Positions 2,140 through 34,937 of a stretch of 35,203 nucleotides of DNA are shown in pieces (the stretch's first letter is position 1; each line of letters starts with the position of its first letter). The stretch spans positions 1-35,203 of the forward strand of contig JBHIBX010000001.1 of NCBI GenBank assembly GCA_046759285.1, read 5' to 3'. Source of the DNA: Candidatus Omnitrophota bacterium. GTDB lineage: Bacteria > Omnitrophota > Gorgyraeia > Tantalellales > Tantalellaceae. The translations under genes were made by a program, and so were the position numbers. The notes beneath the pieces were generated by a model. The model was given only the letters and a program-made list of their open reading frames with translations, was not told the DNA's origin and did not search any database.

Positions 2140-2153
2140 ATAAGGAGGAAACT

Positions 2154-9859: not shown

Positions 9860-10336
9860 ATGTATAAAGTAGCCGTATTGACCACAAGCGATAAATGCAC
9901 GAAGGGCGAACGAGAAGACAAGAGCGGAAAGATCGTGCAGGAACTCGCCCAAAAGATCCCGGGTGAGATCGTAAAGTATGAAGTAATTCCTGATGAACCC
10001 AGCTTGATAAAGGAAAAGCTCATTGATTATACCGACAATCTTAAAGTCGATGTAGTTCTGACTACAGGTGGGACCGGTTTCACAGCTCGGGACAATACCC
10101 CGGAAGCAACCAGAGAAGTTATTGAAAGGGAGGCCCCCGGTATTCCTGAGGCCATGCGCTCGGAGGGGTTCAAGATAACAAAAAGGGCCATGCTGTCAAG
10201 GGGAATAGCGGGGCTCAGGAAGAAGACGCTCATAATCAATCTGCCCGGAAGCTCCAGAGGAGCTAAAGAGTCGTTAGAGGCTGTGGTTGACGAATTATCG
10301 CACGGTCTTGATATGATAGCCGAGAGGGAACATTGA
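9860..10336 (+). CDS. moaB: molybdenum cofactor biosynthesis protein MoaB/Mog family
   Basis: MoCF_biosynth domain motifs: VAVLTTSDK, LTTGGTGFTARDNTPEAT and PGSSRGAKESL. Confidence 0.85.
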   Translation: MYKVAVLTTSDKCTKGEREDKSGKIVQELAQKIPGEIVKYEVIPDEPSLIKEKLIDYTDNLKVDVVLTTGGTGFTARDNTPEATREVIEREAPGIPEAMRSEGFKITKRAMLSRGIAGLRKKTLIINLPGSSRGAKESLEAVVDELSHGLDMIAEREH

Positions 10337-10337
10337 G

Positions 10338-10859
10338 ATGATAATTGTTCAATTATTTTTATCATTTTTCAGAGTAGGTCTTTTCGCCGTAGGAGGGGCT
10401 TATTCTTTTTTGCCCCTTATTGAGAGAGAGGTTGTCGAGAAATATCACTGGCTGGCAAAAGATGAATTCATAGAGATCTTAGGAGCTGTCAGAATATTGC
10501 CGGGCGCGATTTCCATTAAATACGCCAGCTATACCGGATATAAAATCGCAGGTATTCCCGGTATGATCGCAGCGAACCTTGGGAATTTGTTGGGTCCGGC
10601 GGTTTTAATTATTTTGGCCTTGGGTCTTTACATGAAATATAAAGATCTACCGTCTGTCAAAAACGCGTTTAACATGGTTCATTTGGCCGTATTCGCGATG
10701 ATAATCGCGGTAGCGTTTAAATTGGTAGATGTCAGGCAACTAATACAACTGAAAAGTTTATTGGTTGTGGTTATCTCATTTATTCTTTTTATTTACACAA
10801 AGGTCCACCCCGCTTTGATCATTATCGGTGCGGGAATCCTGGGCGCGGTTTTAAAATAG
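10338..10859 (+). CDS. short-chain chromate ion transporter (CHR) family membrane protein, single half
   Basis: 173 aa. FFRVGLFAVGGAYSFLPLIEREVV is the CHR-family signature region. Hydrophobic throughout, and no partner half-gene is adjacent. Confidence 0.7.
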   Translation: MIIVQLFLSFFRVGLFAVGGAYSFLPLIEREVVEKYHWLAKDEFIEILGAVRILPGAISIKYASYTGYKIAGIPGMIAANLGNLLGPAVLIILALGLYMKYKDLPSVKNAFNMVHLAVFAMIIAVAFKLVDVRQLIQLKSLLVVVISFILFIYTKVHPALIIIGAGILGAVLK

Positions 10860-14860: not shown

Positions 14861-16624
14861 ATGAAAAAATACACACTCAAGAATGTAGAAACTCCGGAAC
14901 TTTATGAGGAAATTTTCAGGTACGATAAAGTTCCGAAGATCGTTTTTGATGATGAAACCGCAAAACTCGATCTTCCAAAAGATTTTTGGATTACCTGTAC
15001 AACTTTTCGTGATGGGCAGCAAGCGCGCCCGCCATATACCGTTGAACAGATCGTTGAGCTTTATAAATTTATGCACAGATTAGGAGGCGAGAAGGGCGTT
15101 ATCCGGCAATGTGAGTTTTTCCTTTATAGTGACAAAGATAAGGAAGCCGTTGATGAGTGCAGGAAGCTAGGATATAAGTATCCTGAGGTTACAGGCTGGA
15201 TCAGGGCGAAAAAGGAAGACTTTAAACTCGTCAAACAGATGGGACTTAAAGAAACAGGGATTTTAACTTCTGCTTCCGATTATCATATTTTCCTGAAGCT
15301 GGGCAAGACCCGCAAAGAGGCGATGGAAGGGTACCTCGAGGTCGTCAGGGCCGCTTTGGAAGAAGGCATCATTCCCCGTTGTCATCTGGAAGACTTAACC
15401 CGCGCGGACTTCTACGGCTTTGTAATACCTTTTGTTCAGGAATTGATGAAGCTTTCCGAAGAGAGCAAGATGCCCATAAAGGTAAGAGCGTGTGACACGC
15501 TCGGGTTCGGGATCCCTCATCCCCAGGCGTCTCTTCCAAGGGGCGTTCCAAAACTGATCCAGGGCCTGATAAAAGAAGGCGGCGTTCATTCCGAGCGCCT
15601 TGAATGGCACGGCCATAATGATTTTCATAAAGTCATAGCCAACGCAACGATCGCCTGGCTGTACGGGTGTTCCGCGGCAAACGGCACGCTTCTCGGGTTC
15701 GGGGAAAGAACGGGAAATCCCCCGATAGAGGGGCTTATAATCGACTACATTTCTCTAAAGGGTGATTTCAACGGGGTCGACACCAAGGTTATAACCGAGA
15801 TCGGAGATTACTTCAAGAAGGTGATCAAGGAGCCCGTTTCTAAAAATTATCCTTATGTTGGTGACGAGTTCAATGTCACACGTGCCGGCATTCATGCCGA
15901 TGGAGGAATAAAGAACGAGAGGATTTACAACATATTCGATACGAGAAAACTCCTAGACCGGCCCATAGGAGTCAGCATTACCGATAAATCCGGCGTAGCT
16001 GGAATAACCTACTGGATAAACAGCTTCTTTGATCTGAAAGGAAAAGATGTTGTCGATAAACAACATCCGGGGGTCAAGAGGATACATCAGCTGGTGGACG
16101 CGGAATACCAGAACAAGAGGACGACGAGCATATCAAACCAGGAGATGGTTACATTCACCAAGAAATGCCTGCCTAATCTTTTTGAATCCGAACTTGAAGA
16201 TCTTAAGTCTAAAGCGAAAGAACTGGCTTATGAGATGGTTACAAAAATTGTCAAGGACCCGGCAATCGTTTCAATGGATCCTAAAAAGCAGGAGCCGGTT
16301 CTGCACCAGGTTACCGACACGCACCCGTTTATCAAATTGATCTACGTGACAGACGCGAAAGGGAATAAGATCACAAAAAATATCACGCAAAAACATGATA
16401 CTGAGGCTTACCAGAAAGATTTCGATGAGTTCGGTAATTTTTCTGACCGCGAATGGTTTACCTGCGTCATGGATCAAATGGATACGTGTTTTACGGACCT
16501 TTATACTTCAAAATTTACGGGACTTTTATGTATTACCGTATCTGCGCCGATTCTTGACGACAAAGAAAGTATCATTGGAGTTCTAGGTATCGATATCAAG
16601 TTTGAGGACCTGATAAAGATTTGA
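14861..16624 (+). CDS. HMGL-family acetyl-CoA:2-oxoacid condensing enzyme (Re-citrate synthase / homocitrate synthase-like) with a C-terminal Cache/PDC-like domain
   Basis: TIM-barrel motifs TTFRDGQQ and HGHNDFH...ANGTLLGFGERTGN. The last ~120 aa (IKLIYVTDAKGNK...FSDREWF...LYTSKFTGLLCITVSAPILDDKESIIGVLGIDIKFEDL) follow the Cache-domain pattern. Confidence 0.75.
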   Translation: MKKYTLKNVETPELYEEIFRYDKVPKIVFDDETAKLDLPKDFWITCTTFRDGQQARPPYTVEQIVELYKFMHRLGGEKGVIRQCEFFLYSDKDKEAVDECRKLGYKYPEVTGWIRAKKEDFKLVKQMGLKETGILTSASDYHIFLKLGKTRKEAMEGYLEVVRAALEEGIIPRCHLEDLTRADFYGFVIPFVQELMKLSEESKMPIKVRACDTLGFGIPHPQASLPRGVPKLIQGLIKEGGVHSERLEWHGHNDFHKVIANATIAWLYGCSAANGTLLGFGERTGNPPIEGLIIDYISLKGDFNGVDTKVITEIGDYFKKVIKEPVSKNYPYVGDEFNVTRAGIHADGGIKNERIYNIFDTRKLLDRPIGVSITDKSGVAGITYWINSFFDLKGKDVVDKQHPGVKRIHQLVDAEYQNKRTTSISNQEMVTFTKKCLPNLFESELEDLKSKAKELAYEMVTKIVKDPAIVSMDPKKQEPVLHQVTDTHPFIKLIYVTDAKGNKITKNITQKHDTEAYQKDFDEFGNFSDREWFTCVMDQMDTCFTDLYTSKFTGLLCITVSAPILDDKESIIGVLGIDIKFEDLIKI

Positions 16625-22403: not shown

Positions 22404-23552
22404 ATGGAAAATGTAAAAGATGAAGTAAAGATCGTCGACACCACTCTGCGAGACGGAGAACAGACCGCCGGGGTTGTTTTTTCAAACGACGAAAAAAGGA
22501 AAATCGCCGATCTTTTGGATGAGGCGGGTGTATATCAGATCGAGGCGGGTGTTCCCGCGATGAAAGGCGATGAAAAGCAGGCCATAAAAGACATCGTGAA
22601 GGATAATCACAAGGCCAGTATATTGGGATGGTGCCGCGCGGTATCCGATGATATCAGACAGGCTATCGACTGCGGCCTGGATGCCGTCTGCGTTTCCATA
22701 CCTGTTTCAGATGTCCATATCGAAAAAAAGCTGAAGAAAGACCGGAATTGGGTTCATGAAAATGTAGTCCGGGCCATTAATTTTGCTAAAAGCAACGGGC
22801 TTTACGTTTCCTGCAATGCCGAGGACGCTTCACGCACTAGAATGGAGGATCTAATCACTTTTGCCAGGATCGTTAAAGAAGCTGGGGCGGATCGTATGCG
22901 TTTTTGCGATACAGTAGGTATACTCGGCCCCGAGCAGACTGCAGAAAAGGTAAGGGCTCTGATACATGAGGTGGGGTTGACTATCGAGGTCCACGCGCAT
23001 AACGATTTCGGAATGGCAACTGCGAACAGCATCGCAGGCCTTAAATCCAGGGCTGAATTTGTCAGTGTTACTGTAAACGGATTGGGAGAGAGGGCGGGGA
23101 ATGCGGCTCTTGAAGAAGTTGTTATGGCGCTTAAATACGTTGAGGGGCGTGATATTTCTTTTAATATCTCAAAGTTAAAAGCATTGTCCGAGTTTGTTGC
23201 CAAGGCTTCGGGAAGAGAAGTGCCTGTAAGTAAGCCAATTGTCGGCAAGAATATATTTACACATGAAGCAGGTATCCAGGTCGATGGTCTTGTAAAAGAA
23301 CCGGAAACTTATGAAGTATTCCATCCTGCTGAGATAGGTGGAGAACGGCAGATTGTAATAGGGAAGCACTCAGGGAAAAACGCTGTAAAGATGAAGTTTA
23401 GGGAATTTGGTATTGATATAGATGATGAAATGGCAAAAAATATATTAAATGCTGTCAGAAAAAAGGCCGTAGAAGTTAAACGCCCTTTATTTGATAAAGA
23501 GCTTATGTACATATATTACAGTGAGACCAAAGAATTTGATAAGACGGATTAA
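22404..23552 (+). CDS. short HMGL-family synthase (NifV/AksA-type homocitrate, citramalate or second Re-citrate synthase); substrate unassigned
   Basis: DTTLRDGEQ, HAHNDFGMATANS and NGLGERAGNAALEE motifs. 382 aa with no LeuA-type regulatory domain. Stop overlaps the sdhA start (TAATG). Confidence 0.75.
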   Translation: MENVKDEVKIVDTTLRDGEQTAGVVFSNDEKRKIADLLDEAGVYQIEAGVPAMKGDEKQAIKDIVKDNHKASILGWCRAVSDDIRQAIDCGLDAVCVSIPVSDVHIEKKLKKDRNWVHENVVRAINFAKSNGLYVSCNAEDASRTRMEDLITFARIVKEAGADRMRFCDTVGILGPEQTAEKVRALIHEVGLTIEVHAHNDFGMATANSIAGLKSRAEFVSVTVNGLGERAGNAALEEVVMALKYVEGRDISFNISKLKALSEFVAKASGREVPVSKPIVGKNIFTHEAGIQVDGLVKEPETYEVFHPAEIGGERQIVIGKHSGKNAVKMKFREFGIDIDDEMAKNILNAVRKKAVEVKRPLFDKELMYIYYSETKEFDKTD

Positions 23553-25240
23553 TGAAACAGGAAATTATCATTGTAGGCAGTGGTCTGGCGGGAATGCGGG
23601 CGGCGATTGCTGCAGGATACAAAGGAATAAAATGTATGGTCATTTCTTTGGTTTATCCTGTCAGGTCACACTCTGTAACCGCACAAGGTGGGATCAACGC
23701 CTCGCTTAAGAATGTTGACAAAAACGATTCCTGGGAAAAACACGCTTTTGAAACGGTAAAAGGAAGCGACTACCTTGCTGATCAAAAAGCGGTAACTATT
23801 CTTACTAAAAAAGCGGTTTCTTCTGTCTGTGAATTGGAAAAGTGGGGCGCACCTTTTTCCCGTACCACAGAGGGACGGATCAATCAGCGCCCTTTTGGGG
23901 GAGCGGCTTTTCCCCGCACCTGTTACGCCGAGGACAGAACCGGTCATAATCTCCTCCATACTTTATATCAGCAATGCTTACGCCACAAAGTCCCTTTTTT
24001 AGATGAATGGATGGTAGTTGAGCTTATTGTGAAAGACAACCGTTGTCTGGGGGTAGTGGCATTAAACTTAAAATCGGGGGAAATAGAGGCCATACCGACA
24101 AAAGCGGTAATTATGGCTACCGGAGGAGCGGGAAGGATTTACGCTCAGTCAACTAATGCCCTTATCAACAGCGGCACAGGTATTGCTCTAGCCTATAGAG
24201 CGGGTGTGGGCGCAAAAGATATGGAATTTGTGCAGTTTCATCCTACCTCTCTCTACGGAACGAATATCCTTAGTACTGAAGGGGCCCGGGGTGCAGGAGG
24301 ATATCTTTTAAATAAAAACGGCGAGCGGTTCATGAAGAACTATGCCCCTCATCTTATGGAGCTCGCCCCGAGAGACATAGTAGCACGTGCGATTAAAACC
24401 GAGATACTTGAAGGCAGGGGCATTGAAGACGCTTATGTATATCTTGATCTAAGGCATCTGGGGGAAGACAAGATAAATGAAAAGTTGCCGGGCATAAGAG
24501 AAATAGGGATAAGGTTTGCTGGTATAGATGCGGTTGAAGCCCCTTTACCTGTTCAACCCGGACAACATTACACAATGGGTGGAATTGATTGCGATATTAA
24601 CTGCCAAACTTCTGTTCCCAACCTCTTTGCAGCGGGAGAGTGTTCGTGCGTTTCTGTTCATGGGGCCAACAGGTTAGGAGGAAATTCTCTTATGGAGACA
24701 GTTGTTTTCGGCAGGATTGCCGGAGAGAATGCTGCCCAATGCTGCCATGAGATTGAATACAAAGAGGATGCGGATGCGCTCTTTAGTTCTATGAATGAAA
24801 ACGAGAAAAGGATCTCTTCTCATTTTACTTCAAAAGGGAAAGAAAGAGTGGGAAAATTGCGCAAAAAGTTAAGAGAATTAATGATAGAGAAGGTAGGCAT
24901 TTTTCGCAAGGAAAGCGAACTAAAAGAAGCAATTGAAGAAATAAAAGAAATCAGGAAAAGGTATAAAGCAGTATCTTTAACAAGTTCAGGGAAGAAATTT
25001 AATTTGGAATTAATCACTGCTTTAGAGGTGGAATGCATGATTGATCTGGCACTGGTGATAGGGGAAGGAGCTTTAAAAAGAGAGGAGAGCCGTGGTTCGC
25101 ATTTTCGTACCGATTTTCCGAAGCACGACGATAAAAACTGGCTTAAACATACTCTTGCTCATTATACGTCCGATGGCCCGGAACTTTCTTATAAGGAAGT
25201 TGACCTATCTACCTGGCAACCGAAAGAAAGAAAATATTGA
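23552..25240 (+). CDS. sdhA: succinate dehydrogenase / fumarate reductase flavoprotein subunit
   Basis: GSGLAG FAD motif. RSHSVTAQGGINA carries the His used for covalent FAD. Also HPTS...TEGARGAGGYLLN, HYTMGGI, and ESRGSHFRTDFPKHDDKNWLKHT. Confidence 0.88.
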   Translation: MKQEIIIVGSGLAGMRAAIAAGYKGIKCMVISLVYPVRSHSVTAQGGINASLKNVDKNDSWEKHAFETVKGSDYLADQKAVTILTKKAVSSVCELEKWGAPFSRTTEGRINQRPFGGAAFPRTCYAEDRTGHNLLHTLYQQCLRHKVPFLDEWMVVELIVKDNRCLGVVALNLKSGEIEAIPTKAVIMATGGAGRIYAQSTNALINSGTGIALAYRAGVGAKDMEFVQFHPTSLYGTNILSTEGARGAGGYLLNKNGERFMKNYAPHLMELAPRDIVARAIKTEILEGRGIEDAYVYLDLRHLGEDKINEKLPGIREIGIRFAGIDAVEAPLPVQPGQHYTMGGIDCDINCQTSVPNLFAAGECSCVSVHGANRLGGNSLMETVVFGRIAGENAAQCCHEIEYKEDADALFSSMNENEKRISSHFTSKGKERVGKLRKKLRELMIEKVGIFRKESELKEAIEEIKEIRKRYKAVSLTSSGKKFNLELITALEVECMIDLALVIGEGALKREESRGSHFRTDFPKHDDKNWLKHTLAHYTSDGPELSYKEVDLSTWQPKERKY

Positions 25241-28026
25241 TGGCAGCAAGTAAAGTAAATTTCAGAATAAGAAGGTTTGATCCCGAAAAAGATAAGAGCG
25301 AATATGCTTTCTATGAAATTCCCCATGTGAAGGGGATGACAGTTTTGGAAGGCTTGTGGTACATAGTGGACAATATAGATGGCAGTTTAAGTTTTCGCTA
25401 TTCCTGTCGGGGGGCGGTCTGTGGATCCTGCGCAATGAAGATTAACGGGGTAATCGATCTTGCATGTCATATTCAGATTTCCTCTCTGCTTCCAGGAGTG
25501 ATTAACGTTGAACCTCTTCCTTATTTTACGGTTATAAAAGACCTTGTTGTGGATATGGAACCCTTTCTGGAAAAATTTAATTCCATTAAACCTTATTTTT
25601 CCAAGATTAAGACAGAAGGCGGAGAAAATCTTCAAACTCCACAGGATCGAAAAAAAATAGAAAAAGCAGTTACTTGTATTTTATGCGCTGCTTGTCATTC
25701 GGCATGCCCGTTAAACGCGATGGATGAAGATTATCTCGGACCGGCGACTCTTACCGCAGTCAATAGGTTTGCTATGGATAGTCGCAGCACCGGCTGCAAG
25801 GATCGTATTTTAAACATCAGTAATCTGGGAGATTTTGGGGGATGTATGAAGATCTCCAGATGTTCAAAGGTGTGCCCCAGGGATATCGAGCCTGCCGAAC
25901 GCATCGATGAAATTAAGCAGTGCGTTTCTTCCTTTCAGCCGCCTTCGGCCGAGAAAGTCAACACTGTCTGCGGTTTTTGCTCTGTAGGGTGCGGGTTAAC
26001 CATTTGGAAAAACGAGGATGGTACTTTGCAACTGACAACCGATTCAGATTATACCGTAAATAAAGGCCAGGCCTGTCCAAAGGGATGGGACGCCCTACTG
26101 CCATTACAGGCAAAAGACCGCGCGAGAACTCCTTATACGAGAAACAGCAAAGGGGATTTTGTGCCTGTAGACTGGGATGAAGCTTTGCAAAAATTTACCG
26201 ATAGTTTTAAAAATATCCAAGAGAAATATGGCAATGATTCTATAGCCTTTATAAGTACGGGCCAAATCCCTACCGAAGAGATGGCTTTTCTTGGATGCTT
26301 GACAAAATTTGGAATGGGAATTCTTCATGGTGACGGTAACACCCGCCAGTGCATGGCTACAGCGGCTGCTGCATATAAGCAATCATTTGGTTTTGATGCG
26401 TCGCCTTATACTTATAAGGATTTTGAAGAGTCTGATGTGATTATCTTTGTTGGAGGGAATCCTTTTATCGCGCATCCTATCATGTGGGAAAGAGTATGTT
26501 TGAATGAAAATAATCCGACAACTGTTATTATAGATCCCCGAAAAACGGAAACCGCTCACTGGGCAAGCAAACATCTCAGCATCATTCCCAAATCAGATGC
26601 TTCTCCTTTTTACTGTCTTGCCCATATTCTTATCAAGCGCGACGCTGTTGATAAAAGTTTTATTGACAATCATACTTCCGGTTTTGAGGAGTTTAAAGAA
26701 TTCCTCGAGAAATTTTCTCCTAAAACTGTAAGTAAAGAAACAGGGCTGAAAGAATCCGAGATCCATAAATTGGCGGATTTAATACAAAACGGCAGAAAAG
26801 TTTCCTTTTGGTGGACGATGGGGGTCAATCAGAGTTATATGGGAGTGAGGACGGCTCAGGCAATCATCAACCTCACTCTTCTTACGGGGAACATAGGACG
26901 AGCCGGGACAGGTCCTAATTCCATTACCGGTCAATGTAATGCCATGGGTTCTCGGCTTTTCAGCAATACTACATCTCTATTAGGCGGACATGACTTTTCC
27001 AACTCTGAACATAGAAAAAAGATTGCAAAATGTCTGGGAATAAAGGAGAAACAAATTCCGGAAGACAAAGGATGGGCTTACGATCAAATTGTCGATGGTA
27101 TTGCTGAAGGTAAGATCAAAGGTTTGTGGATAATCGCCACTAATCCGATACATTCCTGGGTAAATCATTCTCATCTTGAGAAAGTCATAGGAAATCTTGA
27201 ATTTTGCGTGCTTCAGGATATGTACCATACTACTGAAACTGCTAAGTATGCACATTTAGTTCTTCCGGCTGCAGGATGGGGAGAGAAAAGAGGGACGTTT
27301 ATCAATTCTGAAAGAAGGATCGCTGTCGTGAATAAAGCGGCTGATCCTCCAGGAGAAGCTTTACCCGATTTTGAAATTTTTAAACACGTTGCCGATTACT
27401 GGGGTTGCGGGGATCTTTTCGAAAAATGGGATTCAACCGAGGATATATTTCAATCCTTAAAAAGGATATCAAAAGGGACTCCCGCTGATATAAGCGGAAT
27501 AAAAGATTATAAAATGCTTGAGAAAAGCGGTGGAATACAATGGCCCTTTCCTGAAGGCAGTTCAATTAAAGAAAATGAACGTCGTTTATTTGAAGACAGA
27601 AAGTTTTACACTCCCGATAAGAGGTCTAAGTTTATTTTTGAAGATATCAAATCTCCTCCAGAGCCAGTTAATAAAGAATTTCCGTTTTTGCTTTTAACCG
27701 GCAGAGGAACTGTCGCCCAATGGCATACCCAGACCAGAACCAGCAAATCCGATCGACTTAAGAAAATATATCCGGAAGAAATTTACATGGAAATCAACCC
27801 CGAAGACGCTGAAAAGTTGAATATCAATGACGGTGAAGAGGTAACTGTTTCCTGTTGTCGAGGGGAAATAAGGGTTAAGGCGTGTCTGACCTATGATATT
27901 CCTGGAGGAGAAGTTTTTGTACCCATGCATTATAGCGAAACAAATGAATTGACTTTTCCAGCGTTTGATCCTTATTCAAGACAACCGTCTTATAAAAGTT
28001 GTGCGGTAAATATAATAAGTCCTTGA
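25237..28026 (+). CDS. fusion protein: SdhB/FrdB-type iron-sulfur subunit (aa 1-228) joined to a cytoplasmic Nas/NarB/Nap-type molybdopterin oxidoreductase (aa ~245-929)
   Basis: The N-terminal part has CRGAVCGSC...C (2Fe-2S), CILCAACHSACP and CMKISRCSKVCP. From aa 245 there is CGFCSVGCG...C (Mo-enzyme 4Fe-4S), NTRQCMATAAAAYKQSFG (Cys Mo ligand, no His as in FDH), and a LLLTGRGTVAQWHTQTRT C-terminal barrel. No Tat signal. One uninterrupted ORF, with an ATGA overlap onto sdhA. Confidence 0.8.
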   Translation: MMAASKVNFRIRRFDPEKDKSEYAFYEIPHVKGMTVLEGLWYIVDNIDGSLSFRYSCRGAVCGSCAMKINGVIDLACHIQISSLLPGVINVEPLPYFTVIKDLVVDMEPFLEKFNSIKPYFSKIKTEGGENLQTPQDRKKIEKAVTCILCAACHSACPLNAMDEDYLGPATLTAVNRFAMDSRSTGCKDRILNISNLGDFGGCMKISRCSKVCPRDIEPAERIDEIKQCVSSFQPPSAEKVNTVCGFCSVGCGLTIWKNEDGTLQLTTDSDYTVNKGQACPKGWDALLPLQAKDRARTPYTRNSKGDFVPVDWDEALQKFTDSFKNIQEKYGNDSIAFISTGQIPTEEMAFLGCLTKFGMGILHGDGNTRQCMATAAAAYKQSFGFDASPYTYKDFEESDVIIFVGGNPFIAHPIMWERVCLNENNPTTVIIDPRKTETAHWASKHLSIIPKSDASPFYCLAHILIKRDAVDKSFIDNHTSGFEEFKEFLEKFSPKTVSKETGLKESEIHKLADLIQNGRKVSFWWTMGVNQSYMGVRTAQAIINLTLLTGNIGRAGTGPNSITGQCNAMGSRLFSNTTSLLGGHDFSNSEHRKKIAKCLGIKEKQIPEDKGWAYDQIVDGIAEGKIKGLWIIATNPIHSWVNHSHLEKVIGNLEFCVLQDMYHTTETAKYAHLVLPAAGWGEKRGTFINSERRIAVVNKAADPPGEALPDFEIFKHVADYWGCGDLFEKWDSTEDIFQSLKRISKGTPADISGIKDYKMLEKSGGIQWPFPEGSSIKENERRLFEDRKFYTPDKRSKFIFEDIKSPPEPVNKEFPFLLLTGRGTVAQWHTQTRTSKSDRLKKIYPEEIYMEINPEDAEKLNINDGEEVTVSCCRGEIRVKACLTYDIPGGEVFVPMHYSETNELTFPAFDPYSRQPSYKSCAVNIISP

Positions 28027-28039
28027 GGAATGTGATGTC

Positions 28040-29341
28040 ATGTATAGCTTAAAAGGCAGTCCAAAAGAAGGGTTCTGGGGAGCAACATTAGGCTTTTTTA
28101 TAGGCTTTGCGGCTGTTTCTTTATTCGGTCCGGCAGCGGCGAAGTTTAAGGATGCCATGCAGTTGAGTCCGGTAATGGTCGGGATATTAGTGGCGATGCC
28201 GTCTTTATCCGGTTCTATTCTGCGTATTCCTTTCTCTGCCTGGGTAGATACCACCGGGGGAAGAAAGCCTTTTCTTGTTCTCCTTGCTTTTTCCATCATA
28301 GGGATGTTAGCTTTATCTTTAGTAATTTTTATCCTTTATCCCGACCATCTCAATGTACATTTTTATCCGCTTCTGCTTTTATTGGGGCTATTGAGCGGAT
28401 GCGGTATTGCTACATTTTCCGTAGGCATAAGTCAAGTTTCCTACTGGTTTCCTCAAAAAAGGCAGGGCACGGCTTTAGGAACTTATGCCGGGATTGGCAA
28501 TATTGCGCCCGGAGTGTTTTCATTTCTTCTTCCCATAGCTCTTAGAGGATTAGGGTTGGGAGGGGCATATCTTGCATGGCTTATATTTTTGGTAGCAGGA
28601 ACCGGTCTTTATTTTATGATGGGCAAAAACGCTTGGTATTTTCAGCTGCGCTATCAGGGGGCATCACCTGATGAGGCAAAAAATATCGCCGCTAAAAATG
28701 GGCAGGAAGTCTTTCCCGCAGGAAGTCTTACCGAGAGTCTTTTGCTTTCAGCTAGGACACGGAAAACCTGGATTCTTGTGGCAGTTTATTTTACTACTTT
28801 TGGAGGATTCATTGCCCTTACTGCATGGCTACCAATTTATTGGAAATCGTTTTATAATGTAACTATAGTAAACGCGGGTTTCTTAACTGCTCTTTATTCT
28901 ATTCTTACTTCTGTGATCCGTATCGGCGGGGGTGTTATTTCTGATAAATTTGGGGGAGAGAGAACGGCTATTTTATCTCTTTTTGTTATGTTGATCGGAG
29001 CCATTTTGATGACCCTATCACGCAATTTCAGACTCTCTGTATTTGCCGAAATCCTGATGGCGGTGGGAATGGGAGTAGGTAATGCCGCTGTGTTTAAACT
29101 GGTCCCACAGAAAATCCCTCAAGCGATAGGCGGAGCAGCCGGATGGGTCGGAGGCTTGGGGGCATTGGGAGGATTTGTTGTACCTCCTTTAATGGGGTCT
29201 TTTGTCCGCATATCTGGGATCAATGGTTATGCCCAGGGGTTTTCTGTGTTTATCATTTTAGGGCTTATCTCTATTATTGTTGTAAGCATTTTAAGCGGAG
29301 GCATGGAAGGTGAAGATATCACGCAAAGAAGCGCAGAGTAA
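28040..29341 (+). CDS. narK: MFS nitrate/nitrite porter (NarK/NNP family)
   Basis: 12 TM segments. SGSILRIPFSAWVDTTGGRKPF resembles the E. coli NarK SGALLRVPYSFMVPIFGGRR region. GMGVGNAAVFKLVP is the NNP-type signature. Confidence 0.75.
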   Translation: MYSLKGSPKEGFWGATLGFFIGFAAVSLFGPAAAKFKDAMQLSPVMVGILVAMPSLSGSILRIPFSAWVDTTGGRKPFLVLLAFSIIGMLALSLVIFILYPDHLNVHFYPLLLLLGLLSGCGIATFSVGISQVSYWFPQKRQGTALGTYAGIGNIAPGVFSFLLPIALRGLGLGGAYLAWLIFLVAGTGLYFMMGKNAWYFQLRYQGASPDEAKNIAAKNGQEVFPAGSLTESLLLSARTRKTWILVAVYFTTFGGFIALTAWLPIYWKSFYNVTIVNAGFLTALYSILTSVIRIGGGVISDKFGGERTAILSLFVMLIGAILMTLSRNFRLSVFAEILMAVGMGVGNAAVFKLVPQKIPQAIGGAAGWVGGLGALGGFVVPPLMGSFVRISGINGYAQGFSVFIILGLISIIVVSILSGGMEGEDITQRSAE

Positions 29342-29711
29342 GTTCATAGTAAAAATTGAAGAACTCAGCGGGGAAAATATCTATAAATGCTACCAGTGCG
29401 GAAAGTGTTCCGCCGGCTGTCCTATTGTTGGTCACATGGATATCCTGCCCAACCAGATCATCCGTTTGATCCAGCTTGGCTCTGAAAAAGAAGTGCTGGA
29501 TTCCAAGACCATCTGGCTTTGTTCAAGCTGTTTGCAGTGCGCCGCTAAGTGCCCCAAAGGCGTGGATGTGGCCAAGATAATGGATACCCTGAGAGAGGTA
29601 TTAAAAAGAGAAGGGGTAGACAAGGTGGAGCTTAAAAAAATAGCCGAAAAGATGTGGAAGAAGCTGCCCCAGCAGTTGATCGTTTGCAGGTTTCGTAAAA
29701 GTAGTGATTGA
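29310..29711 (+). CDS. hdrC: heterodisulfide reductase subunit C-like 4Fe-4S protein
   Basis: CYQCGKCSAGCP and CSSCLQCAAKCP motifs with the HdrC-type spacing. GTG start with GGAGG upstream. Overlaps the narK 3-prime end by 32 nt. Confidence 0.8.
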   Translation: MKISRKEAQSKFIVKIEELSGENIYKCYQCGKCSAGCPIVGHMDILPNQIIRLIQLGSEKEVLDSKTIWLCSSCLQCAAKCPKGVDVAKIMDTLREVLKREGVDKVELKKIAEKMWKKLPQQLIVCRFRKSSD

Positions 29712-29740
29712 AAAATTGACTTTTAACACAGGAGGAGAAA

Positions 29741-29887
29741 ATGGAGAAAGAAAAATGTAAAAAAAAGACCCTTGTGATTGACAAGGAAGAGAAAGCCAAA
29801 AAGAATGATAAAAAGGAGTGGAAGAAGCCGACTCTCGAGGATGTGTCCGGAAGGGTGATGGCACAGCCGTATATCAGATTCACCTAA
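29741..29887 (+). CDS. 48-aa PqqA-like precursor peptide (candidate RiPP/cofactor precursor); not in the supplied ORF track
   Basis: Manual translation gives MEKEKCKKKTLVIDKEEKAKKNDKKEWKKPTLEDVSGRVMAQPYIRFT. GGAGGAG (29731-29737) lies 3 nt before the ATG. The gene sits directly upstream of a PqqD-family gene and a radical SAM gene. Confidence 0.7.
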   Translation: MEKEKCKKKTLVIDKEEKAKKNDKKEWKKPTLEDVSGRVMAQPYIRFT

Positions 29888-29962
29888 TCTGTGTCATAGT
29901 GGAAGACAAGAGGTAAATTGACGTATGCTGTAAGTCATGGTCTCATTGAAAGGGGTGTCCTC

Positions 29963-30214
29963 ATGCAATTCGAGAAACATGTGAAAGTACGTAAGGAGAA
30001 GTTTGGAGCAGTGATTTTTGAAACATTGCGCGAGAAAGTGCTCATAACAAATGAAACAGGCGCGGAAATATTGAGTCTACTTGAAGGGGGAAAGGAGTCA
30101 AAGGATTTAATTACTGACTTGAATGAAAATTATAACGGTGATACATCGACGATCGAGAACGATGTGGAGGAGTTCGTTTCGATGTTGAGAGGCAAAAATA
30201 TAATCAAAAGTTAG
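29963..30214 (+). CDS. PqqD-family peptide-binding protein (RiPP recognition element)
   Basis: About 83 aa. FGAVIFETLREKVLITNETGAEILSLLEG...DVEEFVSMLRGKNII follows the PqqD winged-helix pattern. The ATG at 29963 has AAAGGGG upstream; the listed TTG at 29918 is less likely. Confidence 0.75.
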   Translation: MQFEKHVKVRKEKFGAVIFETLREKVLITNETGAEILSLLEGGKESKDLITDLNENYNGDTSTIENDVEEFVSMLRGKNIIKS

Positions 30215-30222
30215 GAGAAAAA

Positions 30223-31206
30223 ATGATAGAAAATGAATTACGCCCAACGTCAACTATACAGCAAACCGAAGGAGACAGTTTCGATCATTTTGTCTCTCCT
30301 TTATTTATCGCCTGGCAATTAAATTCAGCCTGTAATCTTGATTGCCTGCATTGTTGCGAAGAGGCAGGCCACAGCATGCCGGATGAGCTTACCGGGGAAG
30401 AAATAATGGATTTCTGCAGGCAGATAGTCGACCTTAAGATACCGTATGCGGCGATCTCAGGCGGAGAACCTATGCTGCATCCGGATTTTTTCAAGATCAG
30501 CGAGTTCCTTCGAAATGCCGATGTGAGCCTGAAGGTAGAGACGAACGGGCTTTTCATAAATCGCAAAACAGCTCAGCGATTTGCCGAACTTAATTTCCGT
30601 TCTGTGCAGATAAGCGTTGACGGTGCCACACCCGAAACCTTTGGTCAATTAAGGGGCAGAGGAAACTGGCAGAAGGTCATTGACGCCTGCAAGCATCTTA
30701 TAGAAGCTGGTTGCAATACGGAGGTAGTGTTCGTTCCTACAAAATTTAATATCCATGAAACCGGAGACGTCATCGAAATGGCATACGACATGGGTGTTTA
30801 CGGTTTCTACACGGGTAAGATCATGCGTATCGGGCGAGCGGCGCAAAACTGGGATATCCTGTGTCCATCCGATGAAGAATATGAAAAATTCTTCGATGTT
30901 CTAAAAGAAAAACAAGCTAAATATGAGGGCAAAATGAAGGTGTATTATTATCCTTATGATGTTATAGAGGAATTAAAATATCGCCTGGAACATCCTTCTG
31001 CGAGTCTTCTTGTTATTCCCAATGGCAAGGTCAAGCTTATCGGGCCGCTTCCGTTTATCTGCGGTGATCTCCGTAAGCGGGGTCTAACTGAGATTTGGAG
31101 AGAATACAAGAAAGCCTGGAGAAACCCAGAGGTTATTGCTTTTACAAAGAGAGTTATTGATAGCCCAGAACTCTTGAAAGAAGCCAATAAATGGAAAGAA
31201 CTTTAA
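30223..31206 (+). CDS. radical SAM enzyme of the peptide-maturase (PqqE/SPASM-related) type with a degenerate SPASM tail
   Basis: CNLDCLHC (CxxxCxxC) with the SGGEP glycine motif. The C-terminal VIPNGKVKLIGPLPFICGDL...LTEIW resembles the end of a SPASM domain, but only 2 Cys follow the barrel. Confidence 0.8.
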   Translation: MIENELRPTSTIQQTEGDSFDHFVSPLFIAWQLNSACNLDCLHCCEEAGHSMPDELTGEEIMDFCRQIVDLKIPYAAISGGEPMLHPDFFKISEFLRNADVSLKVETNGLFINRKTAQRFAELNFRSVQISVDGATPETFGQLRGRGNWQKVIDACKHLIEAGCNTEVVFVPTKFNIHETGDVIEMAYDMGVYGFYTGKIMRIGRAAQNWDILCPSDEEYEKFFDVLKEKQAKYEGKMKVYYYPYDVIEELKYRLEHPSASLLVIPNGKVKLIGPLPFICGDLRKRGLTEIWREYKKAWRNPEVIAFTKRVIDSPELLKEANKWKEL

Positions 31207-32081
31207 CAGGATTAATAAAGCTTATTCGATACAGGTTTTTATTAATTGCGGGTCTTCTGCCTTATTGCCTTGGGTCAGCAGTCGCGTTTTATTTCCGTGG
31301 GGAATTTAGTCCTTTTTTGTTTCTTGTGGGTCTGGCAGGTCTTTTTTTTGTACTGGTCGGTGTTGAGGCTTTCAATGAATTTTTCGACTGGCAACTTGGA
31401 ACAGACCGAGTGTTCCAAGTAGATCCCAAACCGGTGACTAAGAGCACTTTTTTTGTTGGCATTGTTGCTTTTTTTATTGCTCTAATTGTTGCCATTTTTC
31501 TGACGTTGAAGTTAGGTGTGGCGATAATTATACTTTCAGTTATTGGATTCTTCGCGGCTCTATTTTATCTTGGACCACCGATCAAGTTGGCGTATCGTGG
31601 GTTTGGGGAAATTACGATTTCGCTTTCTTATGGTCCCTTTATGATGATGGGAAGTTATTATGTTCAGACACAGCGCATAGATGTTCTGCCGCTTTTTGTA
31701 TCGGTAGTTCCCGCACTTCTTTTATTTGCGATATCGATACTGAATGAAGTACCAGACTATTTTTCCGATAGGCTTGTCGGCAAGCGGAACATATGCGTGA
31801 GAATCGGGCAAAAGAATGTAATGAAATTGTATGGAGGAGTTTTGATTCTCTTTTATGCAATTTTAATGATAGGGTTATTTTTAGGAAACTTTCCACGCCT
31901 GACTTTGCTTGCACTGGTTTGTTTACCAATTTCATTGATAACTTATACCATTGGGATCCGAGCATGTGAAAACCCATATAGGTTCATTTCGACGATTCGC
32001 AGCGGCATAATTCAATATGTTATTATCCTTAGTATATTTATTACGGGTTACATAGTTGACAAACACTTTTACGCGCCTTAA
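31191..32081 (+). CDS. UbiA-superfamily (MenA-like) membrane aromatic prenyltransferase
   Basis: About 8-9 TM segments. First Asp-rich motif NEFFDWQLGTD and second motif NEVPDYFSDRLVGKRN (compare MenA N-D-x-x-D...G-x-D and D-x-x-S-D-R-x-x-G-K). Overlaps the radical SAM gene by 16 nt. Confidence 0.8.
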   Translation: MERTLTGLIKLIRYRFLLIAGLLPYCLGSAVAFYFRGEFSPFLFLVGLAGLFFVLVGVEAFNEFFDWQLGTDRVFQVDPKPVTKSTFFVGIVAFFIALIVAIFLTLKLGVAIIILSVIGFFAALFYLGPPIKLAYRGFGEITISLSYGPFMMMGSYYVQTQRIDVLPLFVSVVPALLLFAISILNEVPDYFSDRLVGKRNICVRIGQKNVMKLYGGVLILFYAILMIGLFLGNFPRLTLLALVCLPISLITYTIGIRACENPYRFISTIRSGIIQYVIILSIFITGYIVDKHFYAP

Positions 32082-32100: not shown

Positions 32101-32988
32101 ATGATAAAAATTCCTTATTTTCCAGGATGCACATTGACCAATAAAGCCAAGGGTCTTAATGAGACCGCGAAAGAGTGCATACGCATACTCGGAGTCGAGC
32201 TTAAAGAACTGGAAAACTGGTATTGCTGCCAGGCGAATTACTCCACCGTCACCGATAATCTTATGAATCACCTGGCGCCGGTCAGGACCCTGGTTTCGGC
32301 GAAAAAAGAGGGAGATAAACTGGCCGTTCTTTGCTCCACGTGTTATTACGTGCTTAAAAGGGTGAATCGTCTGATGGAGTCGGATGAAGAAAAGCGCGAG
32401 ACGGTCTTTGATTTTTTAGAAGAAGAATATAAGGGCCCCATAGAGATCGTTCACTTTTTGGAGGTTATCAGGGACGAGGTGGGTTTCGAAAAGGTTAAAG
32501 AAAAAGTGAAGGTAAGTCTTGAGAATATGGCGGTAGCTCCCTACTACGGCTGTCAGCTGCTCCGTCCTTTTGAAGAGATGGCATTTGACGACCCTTATGC
32601 ACCGACGATCTTTGAGAAGTTTCTCGAAGCCCTGGGCTGTCGGGTAGTGGATTATCCCTTTAAGACGGAGTGCTGCGGGTCTTTTTTAACCATATCCGAG
32701 ACCGAGGCGGTAGAAGACTGTGTTTCGAGGATACTGAATTACGCCGCTAACAGCGGCGCGGAAACGATAGCAACGAGCTGCCCTCTATGCAATTTTAATC
32801 TTGACTGGAGCCAGGAAGGCATATCCAGCAAAGATGAAGAGTTTAAGAAGATCCCCGTGCTTTATCTTACGGAGCTCATGGCTCTGGCTCTGGGGGTTGA
32901 AATAACGGATGAGATATGGGATGAACACGTCGTTGATCCACGACCGTTTTTAAAGAAAAAAGGATATTTAAAGAAGGTTTCCACATGA
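32101..32988 (+). CDS. hdrB: heterodisulfide reductase subunit B-like protein (two CCG domains)
   Basis: PYFPGCT...WYCC and PYYGCQLLRP...CCGS...SCPLC cysteine-rich CCG motifs. 295 aa. Confidence 0.85.
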   Translation: MIKIPYFPGCTLTNKAKGLNETAKECIRILGVELKELENWYCCQANYSTVTDNLMNHLAPVRTLVSAKKEGDKLAVLCSTCYYVLKRVNRLMESDEEKRETVFDFLEEEYKGPIEIVHFLEVIRDEVGFEKVKEKVKVSLENMAVAPYYGCQLLRPFEEMAFDDPYAPTIFEKFLEALGCRVVDYPFKTECCGSFLTISETEAVEDCVSRILNYAANSGAETIATSCPLCNFNLDWSQEGISSKDEEFKKIPVLYLTELMALALGVEITDEIWDEHVVDPRPFLKKKGYLKKVST

Positions 32989-34937
32989 AAAAAAGAATCG
33001 GTGTTTTTCTATGCTGGTGCGGGTCTAATATCTCGGATGTTGTAGACGTCGATAAGGTTCTCGAGACAATGAAGAAATATCCGGGCGTAGCTTACGCGGA
33101 ATATTATAAATATTTCTGCTCTGAACCGGGCCAGGATATGATAATAGACGCCATCAAAAAGCATAAGCTTGACGGCGCGGTTATAGCCGCCTGTTCGCCC
33201 GCCATGCACGAGGCGACTTTCAGGCGTGCGGCCAAGCGTGCCGGACTTAACGAGTATGAGCTGGAAATAGCGAATGTTCGCGAGCAATGCAGTTGGGTCC
33301 ATCGCATGCATAAAGGGGAGGCTACCAAAAAGGCCATTAAATTGATCTCGGGCATGGTGGAGAAAGTCAAACAGAACGTACCGCTGGAACCTATCGCGAC
33401 TCCCCTGGTTAAGCGCGCTCTTGTGATAGGCAGCGGCATAGCCGGCATGCAGGCAGCGCTGGATATTGCCAATAGCGGTTATCCCGTCATGCTGGTCGAA
33501 AGAGAGCCTTCAATAGGCGGACATATGGCGCAGCTCGCGGAAACTTTTCCCACGCTTGACTGTTCTCAGTGTATTATCACGCCCAAGATGGTGGAGGTTG
33601 CGCAGCACCCGAAGATAAAACTCGTCACGTACGCGGAAGTTCAAAAAGTAAGCGGCAGTGTCGGTAACTTTAAGGCCGAGATCCGCGTCAAACCCGCCTA
33701 TGTCGATAGAGAAAAGTGCACGGCCTGCGGCATATGTATTGAAAAATGTCCGGTAAAAGTCCCTTCCGAATTTGACGAAAAACTGGGCGAAAGAAAAGCA
33801 ATATATGTGAGCTCACCTCAGGCGGTACCCAATAAGCCGGTTATAGACGCCAAACATTGTCTATATCTATTGCAAGGGAAGTGCGGGATCTGCTCAAAGG
33901 TCTGTGAGATCAACGCGGTTGATTTCGAGCAGAAAGAGACCATTATAGAAGAAGAGTTCGGGGCTATTGTCATTGCTACCGGTTTCGACCTCTATCCTAC
34001 TGATAAGTTAGAAGAGTATGGGTATGGGGAGTTTAAGGACGTGATCAGCGGGCTTGAATTTGAAAGGCTGAATTCCGCATCCGGCCCGACAGAAGGCCAG
34101 ATAGTCCGGCCGTCCGACAGAACGATCCCGAAAGAAGTCGTTTTCTTGCAGTGCATAGGATCAAGGGATCCCGAAAGCGGCATGCCTTATTGTTCAAAGA
34201 TCTGCTGCATGTATACGGCGAAACACGCGATGCTCTACAGAAGAAAAGTCCCGGATGGACAAGCATACGTGTTTTATATAGATATCAGGTCGGGCGGAAA
34301 AGGGTACGAAGAATTTGTCCAGCGCGGCATGGAGGAGGAAAGAACGCTTTATTTTCGCGGAAAGGTAAGCAAAATATTTAAGGAGGATGACAGAATTGTG
34401 GTCTGGGGGGTCGATACCCTGACCGACAGAAAGATCGAGATAAAAGCTGATATGGTAGTGCTTGCCACGGCAATAGTTCCCCGCGATGATGCTAAGGAAT
34501 TGGCTAAAATTTTGAATGTAAGTACGGACGAATTCGGTTTTTATACCGAAGCGCATGTGAAATTGCGTCCAGTTGAGAGCACAACGCGCGGTATTTTCTT
34601 CGCCGGATGCGCTCAGGGGCCGAAAGACATACCCGACTCGATAAGCCAGGCCGGTTGCGCGGCCAGCAAAGTGGCCTATTTATTTTCTCAGGAGAAGCTG
34701 TATAGCGAGCCCGTTGTAGCCTGTGTGAACGAGGAGCTCTGCACGGGTTGCGGACTATGCGTCACGGCCTGTCCTTATGACGCCAGAGAAATAGACCCGA
34801 AGAAAAAAATAGCGATAGTCAAGGAAGCGCTTTGCCAGGGTTGCGGGGCCTGCGTCACGGTATGCCCGAACAAGGCATGCAAGCTGAAAAACATGACCAT
34901 GGAGCAGGTTTTCCGTATGATCGAAAAACTGGAATGA
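32985..34937 (+). CDS. hdrA: heterodisulfide reductase subunit A-like FAD/FeS flavoprotein
   Basis: N-terminal IGVFLCWCGSNI. FAD motif VIGSGIAGMQAA. Ferredoxin motifs CTACGICIEKCP, CGICSKVC, CTGCGLCVTACP and CQGCGACVTVCP. 650 aa. Overlaps the hdrB stop. Confidence 0.88.
   Translation: MKKRIGVFLCWCGSNISDVVDVDKVLETMKKYPGVAYAEYYKYFCSEPGQDMIIDAIKKHKLDGAVIAACSPAMHEATFRRAAKRAGLNEYELEIANVREQCSWVHRMHKGEATKKAIKLISGMVEKVKQNVPLEPIATPLVKRALVIGSGIAGMQAALDIANSGYPVMLVEREPSIGGHMAQLAETFPTLDCSQCIITPKMVEVAQHPKIKLVTYAEVQKVSGSVGNFKAEIRVKPAYVDREKCTACGICIEKCPVKVPSEFDEKLGERKAIYVSSPQAVPNKPVIDAKHCLYLLQGKCGICSKVCEINAVDFEQKETIIEEEFGAIVIATGFDLYPTDKLEEYGYGEFKDVISGLEFERLNSASGPTEGQIVRPSDRTIPKEVVFLQCIGSRDPESGMPYCSKICCMYTAKHAMLYRRKVPDGQAYVFYIDIRSGGKGYEEFVQRGMEEERTLYFRGKVSKIFKEDDRIVVWGVDTLTDRKIEIKADMVVLATAIVPRDDAKELAKILNVSTDEFGFYTEAHVKLRPVESTTRGIFFAGCAQGPKDIPDSISQAGCAASKVAYLFSQEKLYSEPVVACVNEELCTGCGLCVTACPYDAREIDPKKKIAIVKEALCQGCGACVTVCPNKACKLKNMTMEQVFRMIEKLE

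Follow-up and report, generated by a model that had tools for sequence, protein, structure and literature searches.

A gene for a 48-residue peptide, located at positions 29741 to 29887 on the plus strand of a contig from a metagenome-assembled genome (MAG) of Candidatus Omnitrophota, is, by the pattern of its nucleotide variation, real, translated, and selected at the protein level. It belongs to an obligate unit of four genes whose other members encode a PqqD-family protein, a radical S-adenosylmethionine (SAM) enzyme, and a membrane prenyltransferase of the UbiA superfamily. (The window analyzed here is the entire contig, of 35,203 bp.) We judge the chances to be about even that the peptide is processed, through radical SAM modification and polyprenylation, into a membrane-bound product in the service of quinone-type respiration. 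An initial annotation of the window had recognized in the peptide the geometry of PqqA, the precursor for pyrroloquinoline quinone (PQQ), and had proposed that its tail receives a chemistry different from PQQ formation. Neither the UbiA prenyltransferase nor the respiratory-operon context was part of that annotation; both were found in the present analysis. The order of the genes in the window is peptide, PqqD, radical SAM, UbiA, and their features are as follows.

29730..29737, plus strand: ribosome-binding site AGGAGGAG of the peptide gene, read in the sequence

29741..29887, plus strand: gene for the putative 48-amino-acid (aa) precursor peptide, including the stop codon (open reading frame [ORF] read in the sequence; relatives in other genomes; codon-position entropy)

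29741..29818, plus strand: variable Lys/Glu-rich N-terminal region, residues 1–26 (alignment A1 of the family)

29819..29848, plus strand: leader motif W27-x-x-P30-x-L32-E-D-V-S36, presumed docking segment for PqqD as the RiPP recognition element (RRE; RiPP, peptide synthesized ribosomally and then modified post-translationally), from conservation, alignment with PqqA, and a lasso leader score

29855..29884, plus strand: near-invariant C-terminal core [VI]39-M-A-Q-P-Y44-I-R-F-T48, always followed directly by the stop codon (80 distinct sequences; 52 of 52 loci)

29963..30214, plus strand: peptide chaperone of the PqqD family, 83 aa counted from the ATG at 29963 (Pfam PF05402, 51.3 bits)

30223..31206, plus strand: radical SAM enzyme of 327 aa, its cysteine motif C37-x3-C41-x2-C44, its C-terminal domain shortened and twitch-like (Pfam PF04055 only)

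31191..32081, plus strand: UbiA-superfamily, MenA/UBIAD1-like membrane prenyltransferase, 296 aa (Pfam PF01040, 81.8 bits)

The translation of the ORF at 29741..29887 is MEKEKCKKKTLVIDKEEKAKKNDKKEWKKPTLEDVSGRVMAQPYIRFT, which is entered at NCBI as hypothetical protein ACE5JK_00160. Its ribosome-binding site is a strong one, with GGAGG about 5 nucleotides (nt) from the ATG at 29741. Across 80 distinct nucleotide versions of the 22 C-terminal codons, the entropy was 0.36, 0.25, and 1.36 bits at codon positions 1, 2, and 3, respectively; the third position thus varies about 4–5 times more than the first and second, and full synonymous codon sets are in use for Pro, Val, Ala, Thr, and Arg. The concentration of entropy at the third position points to purifying selection on the peptide in the given frame of the plus strand, which disposes of the possibility, raised in the initial annotation, that the region is an untranslated spacer. 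Two antisense ORFs (29601–29864 and 29632–29883) were rejected, since variation falls on codon position 3 when the plus-strand frame is read. An RNA element in place of the peptide gene was also rejected, as Rfam gave zero matches at E ≤ 1 within 29300–30300. In a scan for promoters and terminators the counts were not above those of shuffled sequence.

Relatives of the peptide are widespread. A word-indexed search recovered 58 homologs of 44–73 aa, and a profile search covering every protein in a library of 1.84 billion proteins returned 100 matches at E ≤ 0.001 (50%-identity cluster representatives), of which about 95 look genuine. In a scan of one genome per GTDB species, 310 genomes encoded a relative; they represent more than 12 phyla of bacteria and archaea. 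The ORF and its W-x-x-P...Y spacing, whose conservation in homologous loci the initial annotation had left to be checked, are kept throughout, and the family motif is W-x-x-P-x-L-E-D-V-S-x-x-[VI]-M-A-Q-P-Y-I-R-F-T-stop, the last 22 residues being almost invariant in alignment A1. Within the leader, W27, P30, and V35 are invariant and L32, E33, D34, and S36 nearly so. Met40 is the same in all 80 distinct sequences. Ahead of the motif, M1 is the sole conserved column, and the number of residues preceding W27 ranges from about 4 to about 50 among relatives; the initial annotation had correctly described this part of the Omnitrophota peptide as a 25-residue Lys/Glu-rich N-terminus with a single Cys (C6). 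The core, by contrast with this variable end, is constant across Omnitrophota, Planctomycetota (including Brocadiaceae), Lentisphaerae, Elusimicrobia, Burkholderiales, and Acidobacteriota, and equally in Bacillota, Chloroflexota, Hadarchaeota, and Bathyarchaeota. Rare core variants (IMAQPFIRFT, IVLRPYIRFT, and ...IRFS) were seen only in the profile search. One of them, family member P0264, has Phe in place of Tyr44 (IMAQPFIRFT) together with Ile for Glu33 and Thr for Ser36, which might reflect natural variation, decay to a pseudogene, or an error in sequencing.

Since searches that start from the peptide are biased toward the core, we also sampled loci independently of it by way of the radical SAM protein. 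Among metagenome loci, each of the 52 in which the sequence extends 650 nt or more ahead of the radical SAM gene has a small upstream ORF ending in ...QPYIRFT and a stop codon, and the peptide was likewise present in three of three further loci located through the radical SAM protein (L085–L087). In some genomes the peptide gene is present twice (L078 and L026, L074 and L022, and L058 and L082, each pair from one MAG). The copy in L078 (6001–6066) is an orphan, genes for PqqD, the radical SAM enzyme, and UbiA all being absent within 6 kb of it, and the same MAG has the full cassette as L026.

Genes for PqqD, the radical SAM enzyme, and UbiA were all found beside the peptide gene in 72 of 86 loci, with contig ends explaining most of the exceptions, and in the window the end of the radical SAM gene and the start of the UbiA gene overlap by 16 nt. 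Two architectures occur. In type 1 (peptide–PqqD–rSAM–UbiA) the order is that of the window; it is found in Omnitrophota, Planctomycetota, Lentisphaerae, Acidobacteriota, Bacillota, archaea, and others. Type 2 (PqqD–rSAM1–UbiA–rSAM2–peptide–rSAM3) is found in Burkholderiales/Casimicrobiaceae, Elusimicrobia, and some other Pseudomonadota; examples are L029 (2686–7050), L059, and L083, in which the three radical SAM paralogs each have their own pattern of conserved Cys. Single-linkage clustering of the neighboring ORFs merged PqqD, radical SAM, and UbiA, whose called ORFs overlap or are fused, and produced a cluster of antisense ORFs in GC-rich loci; we therefore used only clusters confirmed by Pfam or NCBIfam. 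In one locus (L086) a class I SAM-dependent methyltransferase (9862–10626, plus strand; Methyltransf_11/25, with a weak BioC-like NCBIfam match) directly follows UbiA and may be a tailoring enzyme. No Pfam or NCBIfam family model covers the peptide, the radical SAM and PqqD proteins reach no specific NCBIfam cutoff, and the database names are limited to "hypothetical protein," "radical SAM protein," and "prenyltransferase"; a literature search found no description of this cassette. By its sequence layout of a precursor, a PqqD/RRE protein, and a CX3CX2C enzyme, the cassette falls in the generic class of RRE-dependent radical SAM RiPPs or peptide-derived cofactors.

The initial annotation had taken the segment WKKP to be the docking motif for PqqD. 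The part of this proposal that stands is the segment around W27, which is conserved, can be aligned with PqqA (see below), and resembles the leaders of lasso peptides; the Lys pair does not, as position 28 is Glu, Gln, or Lys and position 29 is Lys, Thr, or Arg among relatives. We presume that W-x-x-P-x-L-E-D-V-S is the docking segment for the adjacent PqqD protein and that, as conservation suggests, its key residues are W, P, and L rather than the two Lys. Homologs of the PqqD protein are 82–87 aa long, and in the window its open frame reaches back to a TTG at 29918. Every NCBIfam model of the PqqD type scored it below cutoff, MftB (TIGR03967) giving 17.9 bits versus 33. Its sole relative in the PDB is TbiB1, which we take to be a lasso leader-binding protein. 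The peptide's only NCBIfam match is, correspondingly, to the start of the paeninodin-family lasso precursor model NF033524 (17.1 bits versus a cutoff of 27) and involves the leader only. The likeness is that W-x-x-P-x-L mirrors YxxPxL, the motif carried by lasso leaders and bound by B1 RRE proteins (PMC6784204). The cassette differs from lasso systems in the sub-threshold score and in its unrelated core, and neither a lasso cyclase nor a B2 protease was found in the window or in the recurrent neighbor gene clusters.

The radical SAM enzyme lacks a match to SPASM (PF13186), and the seven-Cys SPASM motif is absent from it. Its best NCBIfam model was MftC (TIGR03962), at 127.9 bits versus a cutoff of 265, and on the PqqE model it scored 73.7 bits versus 381; no model reached its cutoff. 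An AlphaFold2 model (predicted local distance difference test score 89.4) had as its closest folds SkfB, PqqE, and SuiB, followed by MoaA and viperin, and SkfB was also the best sequence match in the PDB (E = 9e-21). SkfB, which has an auxiliary cluster and makes a thioether, is thus the closest solved relative by both sequence and fold, and like the cassette enzyme it has a shortened C-terminal domain. Unlike the SkfB system, however, the peptide core has no Cys, and the conserved Cys of the enzyme are scattered and depend on the paralog. Outside CX3CX2C, the type 1 enzymes conserve C45, C156, C214, and C280; just two of these, C214 and C280, are located in the C-terminal third. The rSAM2 paralogs of type 2 loci conserve C45, C79, C156, C241, and C280, and rSAM1 and rSAM3 have other sets. 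C45, C156, and C280 are common only to the type 1 enzyme and to rSAM2, the paralog that adjoins the peptide gene. This sharing allows for one twitch-like auxiliary Fe–S site, which the radical SAM enzyme may possess.

Mycofactocin, a peptide-derived redox cofactor that has glycosylation as a tailoring step, offers a second point of comparison. In both cases a PqqD-type chaperone and a radical SAM enzyme are paired with a C-terminal tail that contains a Tyr, and MftC was the top NCBIfam model. The MftA tail is ...GVY. The cassette differs in that its enzyme and chaperone score far below the MftC and MftB cutoffs, its peptide ends in ...AQPYIRFT with a Tyr that is not C-terminal, and a prenyltransferase is present.

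The prenyltransferase is, by its motifs and fold, a member of the UbiA superfamily that does not reach the cutoffs of the MenA equivalogs. The motif residues N62-E-x-x-D66...D72 and N185...D189...D193 are kept; D189 is nearly invariant, and the other four are invariant. Among PDB entries, UBIAD1 alone matched it by sequence and was also the best match by fold (TM 0.72/0.75). The fold and the Asp-rich motifs ally it with MenA and UBIAD1, as does the frequent presence of an adjacent polyprenyl synthase, as in quinone pathways. It differs from MenA in falling below every MenA cutoff (94 bits or less versus cutoffs of 102–555; the best score was 93.7 versus 264, and TIGR00751 gave 61.8 versus 102) and in being genetically tied to the peptide, PqqD, and the radical SAM enzyme. 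A polyprenyl synthase gene (PF00348) adjoins the cassette in 14 loci, from Omnitrophota, Planctomycetota, Lentisphaerae, Elusimicrobia, and one Hadarchaeota archaeon. The first aspartate-rich motif (FARM) region of this synthase reads ...H-x-A-S-L-x-H-D-D, with small residues, Ala and Ser, at −5/−4 ahead of the first DDxxD. Small residues at these positions mark long-chain polyprenyl synthases, and the sequence of the cassette-linked synthase fits the long-chain type.

The flanks of the cassette differ between genomes, and some neighbors recur. Among these are genes for the Na+-translocating NADH:quinone oxidoreductase (Na+-NQR). Two loci, from Planctomycetaceae (L027) and Brocadiaceae (L061), have the order polyprenyl synthase, NQR subunit genes, peptide–PqqD–rSAM–UbiA, nqrF. 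In both, the cassette lies between nqrE and nqrF; L027 carries nqrA–E, and the NQR calls in L061 are partly fused. When L027 was compared with NCBIfam, NqrB, NqrC, and NqrD passed their cutoffs, and NqrE and NqrF fell just under. In an Omnitrophota locus (L038), nqrA–F is followed by the cassette and then by a polyprenyl synthase, and an NqrF-like gene is adjacent to the cassette in 11 loci overall. Genes of the sdh/frd kind, arranged as sdhC–A–B or sdhA–B, adjoin type 2 cassettes, including cassettes of Burkholderiales; sdhA and sdhB are adjacent in six loci (L022, L029, L034, L046, L055, and L083), of which L034 adds an Sdh_cyt membrane subunit and L029 a Crp/Fnr-type regulator. In the window, the cassette splits a set of Sdh/Hdr-like genes, with the SdhA-like gene, an SdhB–molybdopterin fusion, a NarK-like transporter, and the HdrC-like gene upstream and the HdrB/SdhE-like and HdrA-like genes downstream. 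Farther upstream are an NrfD-type quinone-interacting complex and enzymes of the tricarboxylic acid (TCA) cycle. The principal members of the split set are the following.

23552–25240, plus strand: succinate dehydrogenase/fumarate reductase flavoprotein, SdhA-like (Pfam)

25237–28026, plus strand: SdhB-type Fe–S domain fused to a molybdopterin oxidoreductase (Pfam)

29310..29711, plus strand: HdrC/QmoC-like 4Fe–4S dicluster protein, directly upstream of the peptide gene (Pfam, NCBIfam)

32101–32988, plus strand: HdrB/SdhE-like CCG-domain protein, directly downstream of the cassette (Pfam, NCBIfam)

32985–34937, plus strand: HdrA-like flavoprotein, downstream of the cassette (Pfam, NCBIfam)

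The presence of the cassette inside or beside quinone-dependent respiratory operons in many phyla raises the possibility that it may make a membrane-bound peptide-derived cofactor other than PQQ. More generally, the invariance of the core in both Bacteria and Archaea, the obligate MenA-like enzyme (often accompanied by a polyprenyl synthase), and the placement in respiratory operons are best explained together if the peptide is the precursor of a modified and polyprenylated membrane product. Under such a scheme, PqqD would bind W-x-x-P-x-L-E-D-V-S and present the tail (V/I)MAQPYIRFT to the radical SAM enzyme, which would abstract a hydrogen atom and alter the tail, probably at Tyr44 or its neighbors. 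The MenA/UBIAD1-like enzyme would then add a long polyprenyl chain, with the phenolic ring, or a ring system formed from it, as the likely acceptor; in our own reasoning, the phenol of Tyr may be regarded as a chemical analog of 4-hydroxybenzoate, a UbiA substrate. The Tyr-derived product would be membrane-bound, either still linked to the peptide or freed from it, and would work with Na+-NQR, succinate dehydrogenase/fumarate reductase, and Hdr/SdhE-like modules, either carrying electrons or acting as a bound cofactor. A more specific form of the proposal, for which we hold the odds to be clearly lower and which we offer only tentatively, is that the product is a new membrane electron carrier or respiratory cofactor, composed of a ribosomally made, radical-SAM-modified, Tyr-derived head group and a long polyprenyl tail, that is used by Na+-NQR and Frd/Sdh-type complexes. 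Its hosts would be anaerobic or microoxic bacteria and archaea, including anammox Planctomycetota.

Several considerations weigh against a polyprenylated respiratory product. The case that the product is modified is wholly comparative, and the lack of the SPASM cysteine motif of cross-linking maturases such as PqqE and MftC means that sequence does not fix the type of radical SAM reaction. Many genomes have the cassette by itself, surrounded by unrelated genes, so the respiratory link is frequent and not universal, and several of the NQR-linked loci come from related lineages of the Planctomycetes–Verrucomicrobia–Chlamydiae (PVC) group and thus are not all independent events. The core cassette contains neither a hydroxylase nor a protease, and a methyltransferase occurs in one locus only, which leaves a true quinone head group unaccounted for. 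We know of no UbiA-family enzyme that accepts peptides. Finally, Planctomycetota and Burkholderiales hosts are expected to make ordinary quinones already.

A rival explanation is that the peptide is a mere scaffold or Tyr donor from which the radical SAM enzyme excises or rearranges Tyr44, much as ThiH, HydG, and CofH act on free Tyr. Prenylation would turn the resulting small aromatic head group into an isoprenoid quinone or phenol of conventional appearance that retains nothing of the peptide. This explanation, which we rank as the foremost competitor while thinking it unlikely, would suit a UbiA partner that is closest to enzymes for small aromatic acids and quinols, the association of the cassette with genes for NQR, Sdh, and polyprenyl synthase, and the lack, in the radical SAM enzyme, of the SPASM motif typical of cross-linking maturases. 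Yet invariance extends to all ten residues of the core and to the exact C-terminus, which is more constraint than a donor seems to need, and the three radical SAM paralogs of type 2 loci suggest several modifications of the peptide. To our knowledge there is no precedent for such a donor.

Another explanation is that the cassette makes a secondary-metabolite RiPP, that is, a lipidated and secreted signal or antibiotic with an outcome like that of prenylated ComX, and that the respiratory neighbors are coincidental. PqqD, a radical SAM gene, and a short peptide gene make up a standard RiPP layout, the closest folds (SkfB, PqqE, and SuiB) are those of RiPP maturases, and in several genomes the cassette is found among unrelated genes. 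We nevertheless consider a secreted product improbable, more so than a Tyr donor. The core is invariant from Archaea to Proteobacteria, whereas diversification is normal for the cores of bioactive RiPPs; genes for a transporter, a leader protease, or immunity do not recur around the cassette; and in unrelated phyla the cassette lies inside nqr operons and beside sdh or frd genes. Less probable still, to the point that we give it little weight, is an unmodified small protein, such as a regulator or an accessory subunit, with neighboring enzymes that use another substrate. The purely comparative nature of the case for modification leaves room for it, but the strict co-occurrence with a PqqD-family chaperone and a radical SAM enzyme and the layout of a RiPP or cofactor precursor (a variable N-terminus, a conserved leader, and an invariant tail) speak against it.

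As for PQQ itself, the geometrical observations of the initial annotation were each correct in the sequence: W27-K-K-P30, an Asp at P+4 (D34), a Tyr at P+14 (Y44), and four residues (IRFT) after the Tyr, with Met (M40) at P+10, where PqqA has Glu. The PqqA sequence that had been used for the comparison proved genuine, scoring 44.8 bits on TIGR02107 versus a cutoff of 20 (three control PqqA sequences gave 44.8, 45.5, and 36.1 bits). In an ungapped BLASTP comparison, W27–I45 of the peptide aligned with W2–I20 of this PqqA with 7 of 19 residues identical (E = 0.002 for the single comparison). The peptide had no match to TIGR02107 even at E ≤ 10 and none to Pfam, including PF08042, at E ≤ 0.01. 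When the family was aligned with four PqqA sequences by hhalign, only 11 leader columns were aligned (E26–S36 on M1–R11; probability 6.8%, E = 0.005), and we accordingly rejected homology of the core with that of PqqA. The PqqA-like geometry is therefore upheld as a Pro-to-Tyr spacing of 14 in both families and not as an alignable, homologous core. The claim that pqqB, pqqC, and pqqF are missing was borne out, as no such domain was found in plus-strand ORFs of at least 120 aa in the window (one of the ORFs surveyed, 741–1415, had no Pfam match at all); nor were PqqB, PqqC, or PqqF domains found among the neighbors of related loci. Of a PQQ operon, the window contains only a PqqD-family gene and a radical SAM gene. 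These results agree with the earlier proposal that the chemistry differs from PQQ formation: the Glu is replaced by an invariant Met40, the PqqA models are unmatched, and pqqB, pqqC, and pqqF are absent.

On these scores and alignments, the peptide does not belong to the PqqA family, with which it shares a leader-type motif and the Pro-to-Tyr spacing. The cassette as a whole resembles PqqA/PqqD/PqqE in several respects: the peptide is short, its leader follows the pattern W-x-x-P-x-hydrophobic-x-acidic, and its Tyr, placed 14 positions beyond the Pro, is followed by a short tail; the PqqD chaperone is separate; the radical SAM enzyme belongs to the same structural lineage; and the core shows cofactor-like invariance. 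It is unlike the PQQ system in lacking a Glu partner for the Tyr, in its radical SAM enzyme without a SPASM cysteine motif, in its obligatory membrane prenyltransferase, and in the long, variable N-terminal extension of its peptide. A reading of the peptide as a divergent PqqA, with PQQ or a near analog as the product of the cassette, is effectively refuted, for the shared W-x-x-P, acidic P+4, Tyr at P+14, and four-residue tail and the adjacent PqqD and PqqE-related genes are outweighed by models that genuine PqqA sequences match at 36–45 bits and the peptide does not, by Met40 in place of an essential Glu, by an alignment confined to the leader, and by a radical SAM enzyme that scores far under the PqqE cutoff.

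We note several features of the surrounding genes. All of the window ORFs that we took to be genes are on the plus strand and make up an island of anaerobic energy metabolism, with an NrfD/PsrC-type complex, TatC, molybdenum-cofactor genes, a sulfite/nitrite reductase-like gene, a formate/nitrite transporter, malate dehydrogenase, 2-oxoacid:ferredoxin oxidoreductase, succinyl-CoA synthetase, and the Sdh/Hdr-like genes. The product of 25237–28026 (929 aa) is an unusual fusion of Fer2_3 (residues 8–111) with Molybdop_Fe4S4, Molybdopterin, and Molydop_binding, encoded directly after the SdhA-like gene. A 587-aa protein (14861–16624, plus strand) is oddly composed: an HMGL-like domain of the aldolase/carboxylase type is joined to a Cache/PDC sensor domain at the C-terminus. 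In L027, the NqrA-like subunit (1606–2994, plus strand) has an RnfC-type 4Fe–4S dicluster region and scores well below the NqrA cutoffs; it looks like a form intermediate between NQR and RNF. In four loci (L027, 9573–10025; L025, 5419–5880; L036, 5349–5786; and L061, 9562–10017), three of which are labeled Planctomycetota, the nqrF-like gene is followed by the gene for a conserved protein, about 150 aa long, that neither Pfam nor NCBIfam matched.

Two free peptide-derived redox cofactors are known to us, PQQ and mycofactocin, and both are soluble. The cassette described here is a third system built on the logic of a peptide, PqqD, and a radical SAM enzyme, and it is set apart by its MenA-like transferase and by its occurrence in the quinone-reducing operons of little-studied phyla. 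RRE-dependent radical SAM peptide maturation is a known kind of process, and there is a substantial chance that its product here is a categorically new, lipid-anchored cofactor. With four small genes and one invariant core of 10 residues, the system is directly testable. Should the product prove to be an electron carrier or cofactor anchored by a lipid, the cassette would provide a new kind of acceptor substrate for the UbiA superfamily and add to the known radical SAM enzymes a peptide maturase that lacks the customary SPASM cysteine motif. The product would be a third kind of peptide-derived redox cofactor and the first to be lipid-anchored, and it would constitute a new component of anaerobic respiratory chains, including those of anammox and candidate-phylum bacteria.

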